From Eledone cirrhosa (Eukaryota): a stretch of 64,000 nt of DNA. Shown in pieces: positions 815-51,671 of the stretch. The notes below the pieces were generated by a model. The model did not search any database. It saw only the letters and a list, made by a program, of their open reading frames with translations, and was not told where the DNA came from. Each line of letters opens with the position of its first letter. Position 1 is the first letter of the stretch. Where the stretch lies: positions 113,398,001 to 113,462,000 of the forward strand of contig OZ024741.1 in assembly GCA_964016885.1 (NCBI GenBank), given 5' to 3'. Position numbers and translations under genes: made by a program.

Positions 815-1173
815 GCATGTATGTATATATATATATATGTATGTATGCGGAAGAACTCATAAGTGTCAACAGCCATCCAAAAGTGTGTAAATATGTATAT
901 ACACATGACTGATTGGCACAATTTGCATATTAGTAGACTGGCTGATCAGTCAGATCTGCATATTCAGATCCACTGATCAGCCAGATTTGCATATCAGCAG
1001 ACTGTATACGAGTGATAAATGGCCGGCTTTGCCAAGTTCAAATAAAAAAGAAAATTTCTCTCTAAATGGCTGAATACAATAAGTGTAATCTGCTAATATG
1101 CAAATCAGGCTGATCAGTCACTGTGTATTTTTGAAAATAGCATATATTTTCACTATCTCTGACAGTTTCGCAG

Positions 1174-1239
1174 GTGAACAGTGAGCTGTACTAATGAAGG
1201 GTGATACCCAGAAACATTAGTGTCTGCAGTTCTGTTCAC
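1174..1239 (+). ncRNA. Type-I HHR with a core mutation (CTAATGA)
   Basis: gtgaacagtgagctgta CTAATGA agggtgataccca GAAA cattagtg TC tgcagttctgttcac; ~15-bp helix I. Confidence 0.7.
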
Positions 1240-1394
1240 ATGCCAACATAAGAGCAAGAATGAAGGGTTCATTCTACTAACATGGCTATAAAATTGAGGC
1301 TTGTTTGCATAATTGCAAACAAATCGAATGTTATTATTAATATTTGAAAAACTCAGATTACATTTATTATATATATATGTATACATATATATAA

Positions 1395-8490: not shown

Positions 8491-9570
<1,080 letters not shown>

Positions 9571-9575
9571 TATAT

Positions 9576-10141
9576 AAGTATATATACATACATACGTATA
9601 TGTATACAGACGTACAGTAGTATGTATATATATACATACATGCACACATATATATATGTACGTATGGGTTTACCGAACATTTATTATAATGTTCGGTTTG
9701 TTTGTAAACAAACAGCCCGCATTAAGCCGTACAGTGTTTGGGAACCATCGTTGCCCTTTTGTTCAACACTGACAAAGGAACGATTAACTAGTTTCAAGCT
9801 TATTAGCTATCGTCAGCATCGTATACCTTCCTGTCAGATGATTGAACGTTTGAAAGTATATACTTTCCTTATGCATATTAACGGCTGAGCACCCTAATTT
9901 GCATATCGAGTGAGTTAGTCGGCCGGGCGTACCAAAAACGATAAATGGAAAAGAATGAAATGAAATTTCATTTCTCACTCTTAGTACAGCTGATACTTAA
10001 ATATAAGTATGTATACGTACATACATATATGTATACAGACATACAGTAGTATGTATACATATATGTATGTACGTATACATACTTATATTTAAGTATCAGC
10101 CGTACTAAGAGTGAGAAATGAAATTTTATTTCATTCTTTTT
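9576..10141 (-). repeat. Same repeat family: ~1 unit on - plus fold-back (arms ~9948-10037 / ~10052-10141)
   Basis: Sequence match to the 48-49 kb units. Confidence 0.9.
9781..9821 (-). ncRNA. Minimal type-I HHR, first helix I pair mismatched; a further copy at 48377-48417(-) has a TTGACGA core
   Basis: cgatg CTGACGA tagctaataagctt GAAA ctag TT aatcg. Confidence 0.65.
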
Positions 10142-10809
10142 AAAGTGACTGACTGAAAGAAGTGCTGAAAATGAATGGGGAGAGAAGTAGAAGGTAAAGA
10201 CTAAGAAAGTCATGACTAAAGGCTGATGTTGCTGTTATCATTGTTGTCTAAACTTGCTATACAATCAATCTCAATGTACTTTTTAAGAATTTTAGATTGA
10301 TTTTTTTAAGTACAATCCCTCTAACCATTTCAGGGGCAACACTTTCACTATTTTGTCTGTTGGAATCACTGAAGGTATGAGACTTAGTAGTTTGCAATCT
10401 TGAGGTTGTGATTTTGATTCCCAGACTGGGCAATACATTATGTCCTTGAGTATGACATTATATTTCACAATGGTCCTTTTGTAAGGACACAACCCATCAC
10501 CTGGTCCAAGAATTGAACTCACAATCTGCTGATTGCAAGCCCAACACTCCAACCACTAAGCCATGTGCCTTCCCACACACACACACACACGCACACAAAT
10601 ACCTGCATGCACAAAGATATAAACAGCATTGTTTATTTAAGAAGTTGGGCTTGTGGTGATTGTGTTATTGGAGTTGTTGATGGTAGTAGCAACAGTGATG
10701 GCAATGAGGGTGAGGGTGATGTTTGTTGTTGTGGTGTTGGTCATGGTGAAAGGAGAGTTGTTGGTTGTTGTGGTGGTGGCAGCCATAATGATGGGTGAGG
10801 TAATGGAGG

Positions 10810-11100
10810 ATTGGGGTGATGTATGTTGCTGTGGTGGCAGCAGTGATGGTGGTTGTGTTGGTCATGCTGGTGGTGTTACTGGTTGTTGCTGTGGTGGTAG
10901 CTGTGATGGTGGTTGTGTTGGTCATGGTGGTGGTGTTACTGGTTGTTGCTGTGGTGGTAGCTGTGATGGTGGTTGTGTTGGTCATGCTGGTGGTGTTACT
11001 GGTTGTTGCTGTGGTGGTAGCTGTGATGGTGGTTGTGTTGGTCATGCTGGTGGTGTTACTGGTTGTTGCTGTGGTGGTAGCTGTGATGGTGGTTGTGGTA
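10810..11100. repeat. 60-bp GT-rich minisatellite, ~4.5 copies
   Basis: Lines 10861, 10921, 10981 and 11041 are nearly identical. Confidence 0.95.
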
Positions 11101-28265: not shown

Positions 28266-28350
28266 AAAGTTATATTTAAATTGTTGGGTTAACAACGAGT
28301 AAATATTTATAACTGATATAAAAGCACTCAACAAGTATTTGGAGTATATT

Positions 28351-28700
28351 TATGATATTAAATAAATGGAAACTATATTTATAAAACCATATTTATTTCA
28401 TTATATATATTTCAGGGATATCATATTAACAATATGTTATGCCTTCATCAGACAAAATACAATATAAACAGTCTTATAAATAAATAGATATGACATACCT
28501 TTCAATCGACTTGCATTCCACTGCCAAATCAACTTCCCAAATGCAAGTCGATTGAAAGGTATGTCATATCTATTTATTTATAAGACTGTTTATATTGTAT
28601 TTTGTCTGATGAAGGCATAACATATTGTTAATATGATATCCCTGAAATATATATAATGAAATAAATATGGTTTTATAAATATAGTTTCCATTTATTTAAT

Positions 28701-28706
<6 letters not shown>
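28351..28706. repeat. Palindrome, 167-bp arms, 22-nt spacer
   Basis: Direct reading. Confidence 0.95.
28600..28661 (+). ncRNA. Type-I HHR; mirror copy at 28396-28457(-)
   Basis: ttttgt CTGATGA aggcataacatattgttaatatgatatccct GAAA tatata TA atgaaa. Confidence 0.7.
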
Positions 28707-28744
<38 letters not shown>

Positions 28745-29458: not shown

Positions 29459-29531
29459 GGTTCCATGGTGTAGTGGTTATCACATCTGCTTAACACGCAG
29501 AAGGGCGTGAGTTCGAAAATCGCTGGAACCT
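29459..29531 (+). pseudogene. tRNA-Val(AAC)-like sequence, probably a retro-pseudogene
   Basis: GGTTCCA/TGGAACC acceptor stem, D arm, TCTGC-TTAACAC-GCAGA anticodon arm; G53-C61 pair broken, discriminator T, no T4 terminator, followed by (TTA)n. Confidence 0.7.
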
Positions 29532-33095: not shown

Positions 33096-33481
33096 TATAT
33101 ATATATATATGTAGGCATTTATGTATAAATGTGTATGGACCCATAACTTGCTAGGGTGTCATAAGGGTACCATAGTGACATACGTACCCGCATTCGAAAC
33201 CTGATAGAACTCATCCCTTATCCAAGTCTAAACAGAGCATATTTCTTTCAGATAAGGAAAGGGAGAGGTAGAGAGGATGTGATAAAGAGATATAAGAAAG
33301 AATCAATCCCTGTCCTAGACTATTATATTTTTTTATCAACCTCGAAAGGATGAAAAGCAAACTGCCCTTAGTTGACATTGAACCCAGAGTACAGAGAGCC
33401 AGAACGGGTTGTACAAATCATTTTATCCAATTTTCTACTGATTCTGCTAATTTGCTGCATATATATATATAATATTTATTA

Positions 33482-33645
33482 TATCTGAGTTTTTTTTATA
33501 TTAATAATAACATTCGATTCGTTTGCAATTATGCAAACAGGTCTCAATTTTATAGCCATTCTACTGACATGGCTATAAAATTGAGGCTTGTTTGCATAAT
33601 TGCAAACGAATCGAATGTTATTATTAATATTCGAAAAACTCAGAT
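33482..33645. repeat. Palindrome (~75-bp arms, 9-nt spacer) of the 900-1370 family
   Basis: Right arm matches 1270-1370. Confidence 0.85.
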
Positions 33646-33803
33646 TACATTTATTGTATTCAACCATGTAGAGCGGAAATTTTCTTTTTTTTTATAAATA
33701 TATATATATATATAAGCAGAAGGGATATTCAATTTATTGGTAATTCAACAAATATATATGTTTATAACTGATTTAGAGCACTCAACAAGTTTTCTGGAGT
33801 ATA

Positions 33804-34151
33804 ATATACAATGATATTAAATAAATGGAAACTATATTTATAAAACCATATTTCTTCTATTATATATATTTCAAGGGTACCAAAATCTTGGTACACTATC
33901 ATCAGATAAAATACAAAATGTTTTATAAATATTTGACATGACCAAGGATAAAATACCTTAACGGTTCAAGTTATCCCTGGATATCTTGAACCGTTAAGGT
34001 ATTTTATCCTTGGTTATGTCAAATATTTATAAAACATTTTGTATTTCATCTGATGATAGCGTACCAACATTTTGGTACCCTTGAAATATATATAATAGAA
34101 GAAATATGGTTTTTTAAATATAGTTTCTATTTATTTAATATCACTGTATAT
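33804..34151. repeat. Palindrome, ~170-bp arms, centre near 33977
   Basis: Direct reading; a few mismatches. Confidence 0.95.
34044..34100 (+). ncRNA. Type-I HHR; mirror copy at 33855-33911(-)
   Basis: tt(t/c)at CTGATGA tagcgtaccaacattttggtaccctt GAAA tatata TA atagaa. Confidence 0.7.
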
Positions 34152-34309
34152 ATATATATATATATGTTTGTGTGTGTGTGTGTGTGAGGTTCAATCTGGG
34201 GTAACCACAGTAAGGAAGGTACTCAATACATAGCAGATGATTTCCTTCAAATGAAGCAGTTATAGTCCTGTAGAAGCCATTTCTCCCACTCCCTCTCTCC
34301 CCCCCTCCC

Positions 34310-37110: not shown

Positions 37111-37534
37111 TCTGTTGAATATATTGTTAATAACATTTTGGTCAACCTAAGAATCTCTATTTAATAAATCTTTGAAACCCCCCCCCCCCCTCCTCATCAC
37201 CATCTTTTAGCTATGCTATCCATGTCTGTTAGTAGATTTGAGCCAACCTTGGATCTGAGTGGTTTTAACTTAATAAAATGTGGTCGAAAGGATAATGCAG
37301 ATTAGATTATAGATTTCAGCAATACTTGTGCATGGGTTAATAGTCAGTAAAAGCTTGCAAAACAGTGCAAAGACTCTCACCTACAAGACCAAGAGATCAT
37401 ACATACACACACACACACACCCTTATATATATATCTTCATATGCAAATGAGATTAATCACCTCATTTACACAGACGAGAAAAGTATATATTCTCGCATGT
37501 CTGTCTTCTAGTCCAGCAGTCGCAAGCGGTGGGA

Positions 37535-37587
37535 GGGACCGTCCTGACGAATGCCAGTTAAGCCTGAAATGCATAGATGGTTGTCCC
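37535..37587 (+). ncRNA. Minimal type-I HHR
   Basis: gggaccgtc CTGACGA atgccagttaagcct GAAA tgca TA gatggttgtccc. Confidence 0.8.
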
Positions 37588-39625
37588 CCTTGCTTCTCCT
37601 GGACATCACCAGAGGGCGTTAGCCCCCCCCTCCCCGGTGTTTGCATAGCTTCGGCTTCCTAAAACCGTATTTCTTTGGAGATACACAATATTTATACATA
37701 ATGTATAAAGCTATGCTTGAAGTGAAATCCTATTTCTTCTTTATATATAATATATATATATATATATACACACACATACATACAAACGTACATACATTTC
37801 ATAATATTGATATATCCATTTTTTAAAATAGTCTCCATTTAAATAATCTATTGTTGTTAATTTTTCACCTAATGTAAACATTTCATTATAATTCACTTTG
37901 AATCATGTCTGTTTTGAATCTTTTATACTTGGTTAAAGAATTCTTTAGGTTTCTTTGTATTTCATTCACTTCTTTTGGTTATGTATTTTTTACTTCAATT
38001 TTGCAATATCTTTACTGCAACACCAAAGATTTTATTATTGGCTTGTTGCATTTCCAATGGCACATAGCAAATTGAAATACCATATGTATAATTTCCAGAC
38101 ATTTTATGTCCACAGTCCGCACAAAGCCATTAGAAAAACAAAATCAACTTCTTAGATACCACATAATACTTTACATCTAATTATTGTAATAAAAAAATAA
38201 AAAAGAATGGTGAATAAGAATTTTTAATGTTTTTTGCTTTCAATGCAATTATGTTATATTAATTGTTTCTACTTTAGGCACAAGGCCAGCAATTACCCAG
38301 TGCATTACTGGTACTTTATTTTATCGACCCCGTAAGGATGAAAGGCAAAGTTAGCCTCGGCAGGATTTGAACTCAGATCATAAAGGGACGTAACTATGCT
38401 GGAAAGCATGGCGTCTGACCCTCTACCGATACTGCTAATCCACCGCAATTATATTATATTAATGAAATGAAATTGACTTTAGTCTGGAATCAAAATCATA
38501 TACCAGGTTTGCCCCGAAACTATATCTACTGAAAGAGTTGATTTTACATATAGATGTATGATTGTCCCACCCTTGCAAGCAGGGAAAAGCGGACGTAAAA
38601 TGATGATGATGATGATGATGATGATGATTATGTAAATATCTATGTTTATATAGAGAATTATTTGATAAGAGAGGTTAGTGAACTGAGAAACAATATGAAA
38701 TATCTTTAGGTTTTGATGAGAAAAAATATCTAACCTTTTGAACAGTGACCACCTTGCAAGAAATATAAGTGAATCTGTGAAATATCAGATGTTTCCTTCA
38801 TTGCGTAACATCCTAACACATTTACATACTTTTTTTTTTTATTTACTCTTGCCAATACAGACTTTCCTTCGCCCCAACACTTACACTTAAAGTCTTTTCA
38901 AATTACGTTGGCTATTCTCGGTTACCAAATACCGTTTATTCACAACTTTTCAACAACAACACCAACAAAAATACATTGATCTGTCTAATAGTTGTAAAGA
39001 AGACTTGGCAGTGAAAAATGAAATGTAATCATTTAGAATATCTTGGTTTAACAATACTCCATTAATTTACATGGCAACATGCACATTCATCTTTCACACA
39101 CTACATTATATTGAACATGATGGCTACAAACACAGCAATGTGTTATCATTCACTGTTTAGGAATCAATGATTTATATTAGCTATTGTTAATTTGCTAGTC
39201 TCTGCCATTCTGTCATTTTATAAGAAACATCATCAAGAAATCTTCACTATAGAGTTTTGATAGTTCCTTCAATTTTAACATTTTGTGTTGCATAAAACTA
39301 TGCTAAAAGACATTCAAGAAAAATACAAAATAGTGTTATGACTTCATCACATTAAAAGTTGAAGTCTTCACTGTAATACTGCAAATTTTCACTAGTAAAG
39401 GTTATTATAAGCATATTAATGAACAAACTTGTTTCTATTTATTTTCTGCAAAATCGTTACAGGATAAGACTTAATCAAATATTCATGCTTTTTCTCAATT
39501 TTATTTTCTGTTCCTTCCTCTTTTCATTCTCTATCTTTCTGTTTCATCTTTTATTTCTCATATCTTCTAATAAAGGACTAGTGTCTGAAACATACACACT
39601 TTTCTTACTATATCAAATGTTAAAC

Positions 39626-48233: not shown

Positions 48234-48593
48234 ACATGCACACATATATATATGTACGTATGGGTTTACCGAACATTTATTATAATGTTCGGTTTGTTTG
48301 TAAACAAATAGCCCAAATTAAGCCGTACTGTGTTCGGCAACCATCGTCGCCCTTTTCTTCAACACTGACAAAGGAACAATTAACTAGTTTCAAGCTTATT
48401 AGCTATCGTCAACATCGTATACCTTCCTGTCTGATGATTGAACGTTTGAAAGTATATACTTTCCTTATGCATATGAATGGCTGAGCAGCCTAATTTGTAT
48501 ATCGAGTGAGTTAGTCGGCCGGGCGTATCGAAAACGATATGCATAAGGAAAGTATATATTTTCAAATGTTCAATCATCTGACAGGATGGTATA

Positions 48594-48634
48594 CGATGCT
48601 GACGATAGCTAATAAGCTTGAAACTAGTTCATCA
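48594..48634 (+). ncRNA. Minimal type-I HHR (UU site)
   Basis: cgatg CTGACGA tagctaataagctt GAAA ctag TT catca. Confidence 0.75.
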
Positions 48635-49022
48635 TTCCTTTGTCAGTGTTGAACAAAATGGCGACGATGGTTGCCGAACACTGTACGACTTAATTTGGGC
48701 TGTTTGTTTACAAACAAACCGAACATTATAATAAATGTTTGGTAAACCCATACGTACATATATATGTGTGCATGTATGTATATATATATACATACTACTG
48801 TACGTCTGTATGCATATATGTATGTAGGTATACATACTTACATTTAAGTATCAGCCGTACTAAGAGTGAGAAATGAAATTTCATTTCATTCTTTTCCATT
48901 TATCGTTTTCGGTACGCCCGGCCAACTAACTCACTCGATATGCAAATTAGGCTGCTTAGCCATTCATATGCATAAGGAAAGTATATACTTTCAAACGTTC
49001 AATCATCTGACAGGAAGGTATA

Positions 49023-49063
49023 CGATGCTGACGATAGCTAATAAGCTTGAAACTAGTTCATCA
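49023..49063 (+). ncRNA. Minimal type-I HHR (UU site)
   Basis: Identical to 48594-48634. Confidence 0.75.
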
Positions 49064-49479
49064 TTCCTTTGTCAGTGTTGAACAAAAGAGCGACGATGGT
49101 TGCTGAACACTGGTATGTCTTAATTTGGGCTGTTTGTTTACAAACAAACCGAACATTATAATAAATGTTCGTAAACCCATACGTACATATATATATGTGT
49201 GCATATATGTGTATATATACATACTACTGTACGTCTGTATACATATATGTATGTACGTATACATACTTACATTTAAGTATCAGCCGTACTAATAGTGAGA
49301 AATGAAATTTCATTTCACTCTTTTCCATTTATATATATATATATATATAATACTATTTATAGTTATGTATATACTATAAACAACTATAAACAGGAAAGGT
49401 CAGTAATTTCTACTACCTTATTACCAGTAAGAGAAATAGCTCAATGTAAGAACATCAGTTGTTTTACAGAGCAGGAAAA

Positions 49480-49943
49480 TAAAATTAGACAATTATCAAA
49501 GTTGTGTTCAAATCACTTAATAGCTGACACTCGTTTCTTCCAAATTTTCGTTTGAAATCATCGGAGCATTATCAATGTTTGTACATATAATTAACCTCCT
49601 ATTCAACTGAAGAATCATAGAGATACATATATATTGATGTTGTGAGTAACAGTTTCGTATTTATAGGGTGTACTGGACGCGACATATATAAAACGAGAAT
49701 TATACAATAATTCAAATTAAAAACACAGAGTTTTATATATGTCGCATCCAGTACACCCTATAAATACGAAACTGTTGCTCTAACATCAATATATATGTAT
49801 CTCTATGATTTTTCAGTTGAATAGGAGGTTAATTATATGTACAAACATTGATAATGCTCCGATGATTTCAAACGAAAATTTGGAAGAAACGATTGTCAGT
49901 TATTAAGTGATTTGAACACAACTTTGATAATTGTCTAATTTTA
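49480..49943. repeat. Palindrome, ~215-bp arms, 35-nt spacer
   Basis: Direct reading. Confidence 0.95.
49852..49905 (+). ncRNA. Type-I HHR, CCGATGA core; mirror copy at 49518-49571(-)
   Basis: taatgct CCGATGA tttcaaa-cgaaaa-tttggaa GAAA cga(t/g)tg TC ag(t/c)tatta. Confidence 0.65.
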
Positions 49944-50904
49944 TATATATATATATGTAAGCAAAAGGCATATTTAATTTGTTGGTACCCTTGAAATATA
50001 TATAATAGAATAAATATAGTTTTATAAATATAGTTTCCATTTATTTAATATCATTGCGTATTTATATATGTATATATATTATATATATGTATATATATGC
50101 GTATATATATATATGTATGTATGCATGTATACACCTGTATATATATGTATATATATATATATATTATATATTATATATGTGTGTATGCATGTATATACCT
50201 GTATATATATATGTGTATATATATTATATATATGTATATATGCATGTATATACCTGTATATATATATATATATATGTATGTAAACGTACATACATATATG
50301 TATACAGACGTACAGTAGTATGTATATATATATATATATATATACATGCACACATATATATGTGTACGTATGGATTTATTTACAAACACACCGAGCATTA
50401 TAATAAATGTTTGGTATATCCATACGTATATATATATATATGTGTGCATGTATGTATATATATACATACTACTGTACGCCTGTATACATATATGTATGTA
50501 CGTATGACCCCTTAGCCTTTGTCAAGGCAGAATTCTAGGAGAAGGAAAACTCTGATATAACACCTGCAACCCTGATGGTATCCAATGATGTTGACTTGTT
50601 CTTCTTTTTGGTAAATATCATCTTGGTTAAGAGAGTGGGACTGGCTTTGTGCAGTGCCTTTGCTCACTATAAAAGCTTCACGGCACAGGCATTGCTTTAT
50701 ATCTGGAGATCTCTCTGCACTTGTCGTCACATGGTACCATGGGCCCAGCACTATGTGTCAGTAATTGTCACAAGTGTAGTGTTTGTACCAGAGTTTTCAA
50801 GTCGCTGGCTGGACTAAAAAGTCACACTCGTTCAGCGCATCGGTAGGGGTTCTCCTACATGGATATAAAGTAGTGGCCGTACTCGAAAACGAGTTGGCAG
50901 CCAC

Positions 50905-51416
50905 CATGTACGTATACATACTTATATTTAAGTAACAGCCGTACTAAGAGTGAGAAATGAAATTTTGTTTAATTTTTTCCGTTTATCCTTTTCGGTGCGC
51001 CCGGCCGATTAACTCACTCGATATGCAAATTAAGCTGCTCAGCCGTTAATATGCATCAGGAAAGTATATACTTTCAGATGTTCAATCATCTGGCAGGAAG
51101 GTATACGGTGCTGACGATAACTAATAAGCTTGAAACTAGTACATCGTTCTTTTGTCTGTGTTGAACAAAAGGGCAACGATGGTTGCTAGACACTGTACGG
51201 CTTAATTCGGGATGTTTGTTTACAAACAAACCGAGCATTATAATAAATGTTCGGTAAATCCATACATACATGTATATATGTGTGCATGTATGTGTATATA
51301 TATATATACATACTACTGTACATCTGTATACATATATGTATGTACGTATACATACTTATATTTAAGTAACAGCCGTACTAAGAGTGAGAAATGAAATTTT
51401 GTTTCATTTTTTCCGT
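50905..51416 (+). repeat. Same repeat family: ~1.15 units (period ~434); rearranged fragments at 50275-50505
   Basis: GTACTAAGAGTGAGAAATGA occurs at 50941 and ~51375. Confidence 0.9.
51106..51146 (+). ncRNA. Minimal type-I hammerhead ribozyme
   Basis: cggtg CTGACGA taactaataagctt GAAA ctag TA catcg; 5-bp helix I, palindromic helix III loop. Confidence 0.8.
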
Positions 51417-51671
51417 ATATATATATCATCATCATCATCATTTTACGTCCGCTTTTCCCTCTTCGCAAGGGTGGGATGGGTCCTATTCAGCACAGCATCT
51501 CTCCACCTATCACAGTCACTCGTCATCTCCTCCGTGTACTTCAGCGATCTGAGGTCTGCTCTTACCACCTCCGCCCATGTATATACCTGTATATATATGT
51601 ATATAATATTTATATATATATATGTTATATATGTATGTATGCATGTATATACATGTATATATATGTGTATA

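Follow-up and report, generated by a model that had tools for sequence, protein, structure and literature searches.

Newt satellite 2 is a tandem hammerhead repeat with an internal snRNA-type polymerase II promoter (PMC2220036 and PMC6765202, in excerpt), and the schistosome Sm-alpha repeats, in which a promoter and then a hammerhead are found in each unit, use polymerase III and require tandem copies for propagation (PMC6765202, in excerpt). Metazoan non-LTR retrozymes have a type I hammerhead in a tandem non-coding unit, a structured predicted circle, and Penelope-like elements alongside (PMC7229834, in excerpt), and insertions of the Penelope type take the form of partial tandems, contain 5′ inversions and target microsatellites (Craig et al., in excerpt). 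A plant LTR retrozyme has an LTR promoter according to the excerpted literature; a 2020 review states, in its accessible part, that retrozymes of plants and animals seem to be devoid of promoters (PMC7761336), and the word 'promoter' is absent from the accessible text of a 2026 preprint on animal retrozymes (bioRxiv 10.64898/2026.07.22.740005). In the top-ranked literature, which included few subscription papers, we found neither a published snRNA promoter in invertebrate retrozymes nor a description of the snRNA boxes of the present lineage. The newt promoter is said to consist of an octamer and a PSE (work of Coats, Zhang and Epstein in 1994), and the polymerase III promoter of Sm-alpha is reportedly tRNA-derived.

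Four sites in the window, i.e., the whole stretch of 64,000 nucleotides analysed here, from a 3.0-Gb genome rich in (TA)n, are, judged from their sequence, copies of non-LTR retrozymes, with units of 323–467 nt, a type I hammerhead, and partial tandems with 5′ inversions in (TA)n. The repeats carry the boxes of the host's snRNA genes at the same spacing, and each repeat is therefore predicted to be likely to drive its own transcription. Like newt satellite 2, they are tandem hammerhead units with an internal snRNA-type promoter, in this case a predicted one, but they differ from it in the invertebrate host, the compact TATA-box promoter, the use of the host's own snRNA grammar, and the existence of at least six families. 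The polymerase III promoter of Sm-alpha contrasts with the external-type snRNA promoter of these repeats. Hammerhead type, tandem unit, predicted circle and Penelope-like company are shared with the metazoan non-LTR retrozymes, for which, however, no promoter is described in the excerpts available (PMC7229834; bioRxiv 10.64898/2026.07.22.740005); the units reported here reach 467 nt.

Copies of the module in the window

The initial annotation had placed an octamer, a TATA-like word and a hammerhead core in series at 37441, 48940, 51023 and 1098, and all four instances were found there. The octamer is followed by A(A/T)AG(T/C)ATATA after 39, 38, 38 and 39 nt, respectively, and by the core after 103, 88, 88 and 93 nt, the value of 103 nt being due to a 4-nt insertion in the copy at 37441, which belongs to a family (A) with a spacing of 99 nt. 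The TATA-like word lies inside a small inverted repeat in each instance, as had been claimed. Type I stems I–III are present around each core; the cores are nevertheless partly decayed, with CTAATGA at 1191 and a stem II mismatch at both 37544 and 51111. These stems were recovered by a pattern-and-stem scan and by folding, whereas an Rfam scan of the window reported no hammerhead at the gathering score and none among the best 150 of 274 matches at E ≤ 1. The stem III loop is short and palindromic in families A and B. Of 12 octamers in the window, five belong to a module, one more than had been listed; two minus-strand copies of family B, with an octamer at 9904 and a mutated octamer at 48500, and a 5′-truncated family B copy with its core at 48599 were likewise absent from the earlier list.

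The family A copy (37435–37744, plus strand, as are all of its parts) is just under one 323–324-nt unit long, lies between (TA)n runs and has a single hammerhead. Its TATGCAAATGAG (37440–37451) is identical to the box at −77/−78 of a host U6 gene (L031) and of the MRP gene (L082). At octamer +16, the place of the host U1/U2/U5 TCAGT, stands TCACC (37457–37461), a weak match in family A (p 0.09 alone), followed by a hairpin (37475–37495) with the TATA word in its loop (TATATA, 37484–37489). The start is predicted at 37515–37518, where A37518 corresponds to the family A start and A37515 would, through the 4-nt insertion, come to lie at TATA+31. The type I hammerhead (37537–37582) has CTGACGA at 37544, GAAA at 37566, a palindromic stem III loop and a predicted cut after A37575.

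Family B is represented by a partial tandem with a period of 429 (48537–49332, plus strand; cores at 48599 and 49028), in which the octamer at 48940 is followed by TATA at 48982, a predicted start at A49012 and a predicted cut after 49058. A 5′-inverted copy adjoins it (48234–48539, minus strand), with the octamer mutated to ATACAAAT at 48500 and the core mutated to TTGACGA at 48412. Two more family B copies are found at 50968–51421 on the plus strand (octamer 51023, TATA 51065, predicted start A51095, core 51111) and at 9564–10148 on the minus strand (octamer 9904, TATA-like word 9866, core 9816). The family C copy (1089–1360, plus strand) has its octamer at 1098, TCAGT at 1114, CATATA at 1141 and the mutated core CTAATGA at 1191, and is preceded by an inverted 5′ part (890–1092, minus strand) with three tandem octamer-plus-TCAG blocks (992, 961 and 928). 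This block is triplicated in family C, with a period of 33 nt in other copies, and only its last repeat precedes the TATA. Inverted fragments of the 3′ part of family C, which contain neither promoter nor hammerhead, are located at 33480–33700.

Boxes shared by the families

Six families (A–F) share TATGCAAATNAG, YCAS at +16 and YATATA at +40 to +43 (the first TATA of family C is 45 nt from the octamer), so that octamer and spacing, whose conservation in family consensuses the initial annotation had set as a test, are indeed common to all six. Two module parts are added to these, i.e., the YCAS core and a pyrimidine-A start. The latter is found 55–58 nt after YCAS, at TATA+28 to +31, in all seven families (A–G), a pyrimidine-A within a 4-nt window being common by chance (an estimated 0.5 or so per family). 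Mean pairwise identity across the six families is 1.00 for T plus octamer and for AG, 0.73 for the YCAS core and 0.91 for YATATA, compared with 0.28–0.49 in the flanks. The invariance of the octamer is in part built in, because it was used to find A, B, C, E and F, whereas D, E and F were identified without searching for the flanking T, the AG, the core, the TATA or the start base.

The instances had been assigned to three different families, which do not look like separate inventions. The families are colinear with one another; in the downstream part, B, C, D and E can be aligned at 60–70%, A and F weakly. The module is therefore most likely conserved by descent, and the families most likely constitute one diverged clan. 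Family G, a 310-nt satellite (L185 and L188), has an intact hammerhead, CCAGT 27 nt before a TATAAG in a hairpin, and pyrimidine-A at core+56, and it has no octamer. Two old loci (L353 and L354) have a perfect TATGCAAATNAG 104–107 nt before a degenerate hammerhead and no core or TATA at clan spacing; they are excluded from the six-family count and represent perhaps another decayed family.

Two hairpins are predicted in the module, one with the octamer in its stem and YCAS at the loop, the other with the TATA in the loop. The octamer strand of the first stem is fixed across families and its partner strand drifts. Folding of the promoter region beats that of shuffled sequences in A, B and D (z −2.1 to −3.8) but not in C and F (z −0.2 and +0.8).

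Promoters of the host snRNA-class genes

The host genes for U6, U2, RNase P, MRP, U6atac, U1, U5, tRNA-Sec and U3 were extracted from this genome, each with a polymerase class that we presume from general knowledge and not from this animal. All seven intact promoters of the polymerase III class (U6, two single loci and one array; U6atac, one; MRP, one; tRNA-Sec, two; loci L031, L032, L033, L082, L083, L359 and L360) contain TATG(C/G)(A/T)AATNAG, a TATGCAAATNAG-like box at about −78 whose ATG lies at −76 to −79, and a TATA at −30/−31, with 46–48 nt from octamer to TATA; the start is a G preceded by T in every case. At 14 other single U6 and nine U6atac matches that were examined there is no octamer at that place, and these look like retrocopies.

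In the U1/U2/U5 class (L061–L063, L093–L098, L135 and L242–L248) a YCAGT stands at about −57 and AATTAAA at about −89. All 14 distinct promoters have YCART at −55 to −58 and none has the octamer; TATA is found at −28 to −32 in 13 of them, mostly 25–27 nt from the core, and an AATTAAA-like word at −88 to −91 occurs in 19 of 22 copies. The U3 genes combine features of both classes: their two distinct promoters (L362 and L363) have ATGTAAAAT at −74/−73, TCATT at −57/−56, TATA from −32/−31, 42 nt from octamer to TATA, and the AATTAAA word at −104. The U1, U2 and U3 transcripts start with A after a pyrimidine in 11 of 11 promoters. In the RNase P gene (L081:1435–1860), TCAGT lies about 32 nt before the TATA, or at −66 counted from the model start; the octamer is missing and the gene ends in a T9 run, so that it fits neither class.

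Comparison of the repeats with host promoters

The same boxes thus stand upstream of the genome's own snRNA-class genes, in agreement with the original reading of the module as a promoter. A matrix built from the seven host polymerase III boxes scores 15.3–18.4 bits in families A, B, C, E and F, and no equal score occurred among about 600,000 shuffled positions. A perfect octamer-NAG marks the polymerase III genes here and is missing from U1/U2/U5. The vertebrate snRNA octamer is a distant enhancer. The octamer of the repeats had been equated with that POU/Oct site; in the host polymerase III promoters it lies at about −77, and it may belong to the proximal element.

From octamer to YATATA the repeats have 40–43 nt, equal to U3, as against 46–48 nt in host polymerase III genes; from YCAS to YATATA they have 24–27 nt in all seven families, the host polymerase II value being mostly 25–27 nt. 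The YCAS match is strong in B, C, E and G and weak in A, D and F, and the p value for core plus TATA ranges from 1.5e-5 in C up to 0.04 in F (0.015–0.04 in A, D and F). The repeats accordingly combine a polymerase III box, the octamer distance of U3, and the U1/U2/U5 core at the U1/U2/U5 distance. With U3 they have in common an octamer-like box at −74, TCA at −57, TATA at −32 to −27 and an A start, whereas U3, of which two distinct promoters were compared, differs in its imperfect octamer and in the AATTAAA at −104; read by eye, an AATTAAA-like word is absent from the 30 nt before the octamer in six families. In A, B, Bv and D the first 213–329 nt downstream of the predicted start are free of runs of four or more T, as a polymerase III template would have to be, and family G has a T4 at +66. 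In Drosophila the two promoter classes differ by 4 nt in spacing. In insects, one factor binds both classes, and specificity is set by sequence and fixed spacing (PMC1761439, in excerpt).

We consider the module to be real and selected, and most likely a promoter; leaving aside which polymerase reads it, this function is very probable. The spacing and the start base favour polymerase II over polymerase III, as neither the 46–48-nt spacing nor the G start of the host type 3 polymerase III genes is found in the repeats.

Abundance and enrichment

A genome-wide pattern of octamer followed by hammerhead core gave 33,807 matches, compared with 27 for the reversed control. Copy number inflates these counts, and the families are the independent units (six with the full module, and these related). 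About 20 of 100 listed genome-wide matches are outside the clan, 15 being an unrelated coding repeat and about five others. A sample of 105 evenly spaced 10-kb stretches (1.05 Mb) contained 106 octamers, 23 of them with YATAWA at +41 to +44, as against about two per other offset; these 23 comprise 21 clan copies and two microsatellites. The 21 copies per 1.05 Mb extrapolate to about 60,000 genome-wide, which implies tens of thousands of dispersed candidate promoters.

A strict hammerhead scan of the same 1.05 Mb yielded 78 sites (three in a shuffle). The enrichment of the octamer at fixed spacing, suggested earlier as a check on all genomic hammerheads, is seen in 16 of the 78, which have an octamer within 250 nt upstream, at 87–100 nt in 15 of them; it does not extend to the remaining 62, i.e., AT-rich pseudo-LTR-like families, the 310-nt satellite (G) and truncated copies. 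None of 136 pattern matches from metagenome (at least 117 stretches) and viral (19) collections had a hammerhead fold together with a TATA at the right place; one (L455) has hammerhead-like stems and no TATA at +38 to +50. As these collections are poor in animal DNA, the result is uninformative with respect to other animals.

Unit and insert anatomy

Unit lengths are 323–324 nt (A), 430 nt (B), 466 nt (Bv), 466–467 nt (D) and 310 nt (G). Among 2,196 first-look candidates for family A in the genome, the 30 best loci show a circularly permuted 323–324-nt unit, to which an inverted partial copy is usually joined at the 5′ side. The longest array consists of about 30 D units on C1, and no tandem copies of families C, E and F were seen. 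Tracts longer than one unit make up 23 of 55 in family A, for which the loci had been chosen as best full-length matches, and nine of 16 in family D; 37 of the 55 A tracts and 12 of the 16 D tracts run into TA repeats. Each family has two AT-rich sites, adjoining (TA)n, at which its 3′ ends are concentrated. In A, 26 of the 55 tracts end at +240 to +259 and 19 at +280 to +299; in D, six of the 16 end at about +357 and eight at about +432. Family B has clusters at +335 and +380–399, its counts being mixed with microsatellite matches and subfamily breaks and used only for these two clusters.

Folded as circular monomers, the units are predicted to be more stable than 30 shuffles each (z −7.5 for A, −7.6 for B, −6.7 for Bv, −10.0 for D and −4.9 for G), the predicted fold being a stable, self-paired circle with a free hammerhead. 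The only open reading frames are low-complexity ones of 67–112 aa in families A and Bv. A conserved peptide beginning at the ATG of the octamer was also considered and is ruled out, the frame being stopped after eight (B), 15 (D) and 28 (C) codons.

Elements encoding a reverse transcriptase with a C-terminal GIY-YIG domain are abundant in the genome, and the insert anatomy of the clan fits mobilisation by such Penelope-like elements. Penelope-like pseudo-LTRs likewise contain promoter and hammerhead in a partial tandem, with 5′ inversions and microsatellite targets (Craig et al., in excerpt). They differ from the clan in that the hammerheads beside RT/GIY-YIG open reading frames in this genome lack the octamer, and none of 50 GIY-YIG loci had clan sequence as a terminal repeat of its open reading frame. 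At L305:3200–3720 (minus strand) a hammerhead lies 3′ of an RT-plus-GIY-YIG open reading frame, with CCAAT words and TATAAAA 75–84 nt upstream; by its sequence this layout is the mRNA-type promoter arrangement of an autonomous element. The same hammerhead also follows open reading frames in L301, L306, L309 and L317. At another locus (L087) a U6atac retrocopy abuts an inverted family C copy, a junction that might reflect template switching by the same reverse transcriptase.

Proposed cycle and alternative readings

Our preferred reading, to which we assign a probability of about 60%, is that each unit carries host snRNA-gene promoter boxes before its ribozyme and that these drive a polymerase II start 14–27 nt before the hammerhead core. 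The boxes, their spacing, the match to host promoters, the tandem units and the insert anatomy were read from the DNA, and the later steps are deduced. The host snRNA factor (SNAPc and TBP, perhaps with a POU protein) would bind TATGCAAATNAG-N5-YCAS and the TATA; transcription would begin at the pyrimidine-A 55–58 nt after YCAS and read through into the next unit, a start 14–27 nt before the core keeping proximal stem I of the first hammerhead intact. Two hammerhead cuts would then free a 323–467-nt monomer that holds the whole of the next promoter and would be ligated into a circle. A Penelope-like RT/GIY-YIG protein may nick (TA)n, prime on an AU-rich site of the circle and roll round it, and this reverse transcription would leave partial tandems with 5′ inversions, in which a promoter again precedes a ribozyme. 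The idea, put forward in the initial annotation, that a tandem or circular template would regenerate the promoter is consistent with this insert anatomy. Copies with a single hammerhead, e.g., that at 37441, could be transcribed but would be unable to give rise to a circle.

A U6-like type 3 polymerase III promoter, most transcripts of which would stop at the T-runs of the unit end while rare read-through gave the circle, is in our view an unlikely identity for the module. It would explain the perfect match to the host polymerase III box and the late position of the first run of at least four T (213–329 nt after the start in four units), and one of the two 3′-end clusters of A and both of D are at, or within 10 nt of, a T-run. 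Yet the octamer-to-TATA distance is 4–5 nt shorter than in all seven host polymerase III genes and equals that of U3, the predicted start base is A and not G, and the T-runs between the hammerhead and the next promoter would block copying of the promoter. The T4 at +66 in family G also speaks against it, as do the 3′ ends of A at +247 to +256 and of B at +335, which precede any run of four T and so appear to follow AT-rich priming sites. Still less probable is the proposal that the two hairpins serve the circle as RNA elements, e.g., for recognition by a Penelope-like reverse transcriptase, with transcription supplied by read-through from outside. In most families YCAS and TATA do lie in a hairpin loop or at its edge, and the extended stem I starts before the predicted transcription start; A, B and D surpass their shuffles in folding of this region, which most host promoters do not, and retrozymes seem promoter-less according to a review (PMC7761336, in excerpt). 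This proposal nevertheless leaves unexplained both why 12 nt match boxes that lie, untranscribed, ahead of the host U6, MRP and tRNA-Sec genes and why the spacing and start base are those of U1/U2/U5/U3; C and F fold no better than shuffles, the octamer stem is constant on one strand only, and hairpins in the promoter region are expected anyway, since the whole circle is structured. The initial annotation had offered the hairpin as an RNA element in place of a promoter; an RNA-level role is probable, but as an overlay on the promoter and not as an alternative to it, because the structured circle includes the promoter sequence, and because the octamer side of the stem stays constant, the opposite side drifts and most host promoters do not fold.

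The loops of families A and B begin with AAGTAT, which we take to be like circovirus-type nonanucleotides, so that the TATA hairpin might be a rolling-circle DNA origin (a nonanucleotide loop of the HUH type) of a DNA element. The part conserved across six families is YATATA, however, there is no TATTAC nick site, the insert anatomy is Penelope-like, and the module was found in none of the 136 metagenome and viral matches; a DNA origin is largely refuted and very remote in our estimate. We give equally little credence to a module that is neutrally inherited ancestral sequence or chance in AT-rich DNA: the families are related and TATATA is very common in the genome, but box identity (0.73–1.00) is far above that of the flanks (0.28–0.49), and the boxes match host promoters.

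Implications

By its sequence, the clan is the newt design in an invertebrate, with lineage-specific boxes, and newt satellite 2 is the precedent. The predicted polymerase II promoter contradicts the model, stated in the accessible part of the 2020 review, in which retrozymes are transcribed by read-through and without a promoter (PMC7761336). As the boxes are named and the start base is predicted, transcription of animal retrozymes becomes directly testable, and the approach is transferable to other animals: the snRNA promoter of the host is derived first, and the retrozyme unit is then scanned for the same boxes at fixed spacing. The snRNA promoter grammar of the lineage, with its U6-type and U1-type boxes and spacings, is useful for expression of guide RNAs or circular RNAs.

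We propose only tentatively, and with more doubt than belief, that animal retrozymes in general may be transcribed from captured, lineage-specific snRNA promoters travelling inside the RNA circle, the clan being the invertebrate case. Were this so, the clan would have joined the octamer box of polymerase III genes to the core spacing of polymerase II genes, its sequence would have been shaped both as DNA promoter and as RNA hairpins, and some 60,000 snRNA-type promoters (extrapolated) would be spread over the genome; the abundance of retrozyme circles in all tissues would be explained, and the newt case would be the rule.

Other features of the window

Inverted pairs of AT-rich type I hammerheads without the octamer occur at 28290–28720, 33790–34160 and 49490–49950, with cores at 28451 (minus), 28606 (plus), 33905 (minus), 49564 (minus) and 49859 (plus), and probably derive from the pseudo-LTRs of Penelope-like elements in (TA)n, of which they would be remnants. 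A tRNA-like match at 29459–29531 (51.8 bits in the E-value scan, missing from the gathering scan) adjoins a repeat and is possibly the head of a SINE. The window further contains a perfect 246-nt inverted repeat with a 3-nt loop (8612–9106) and a G/T-rich, possibly coding, 60-nt tandem repeat of 4.6 copies at 98% (10824–11099).
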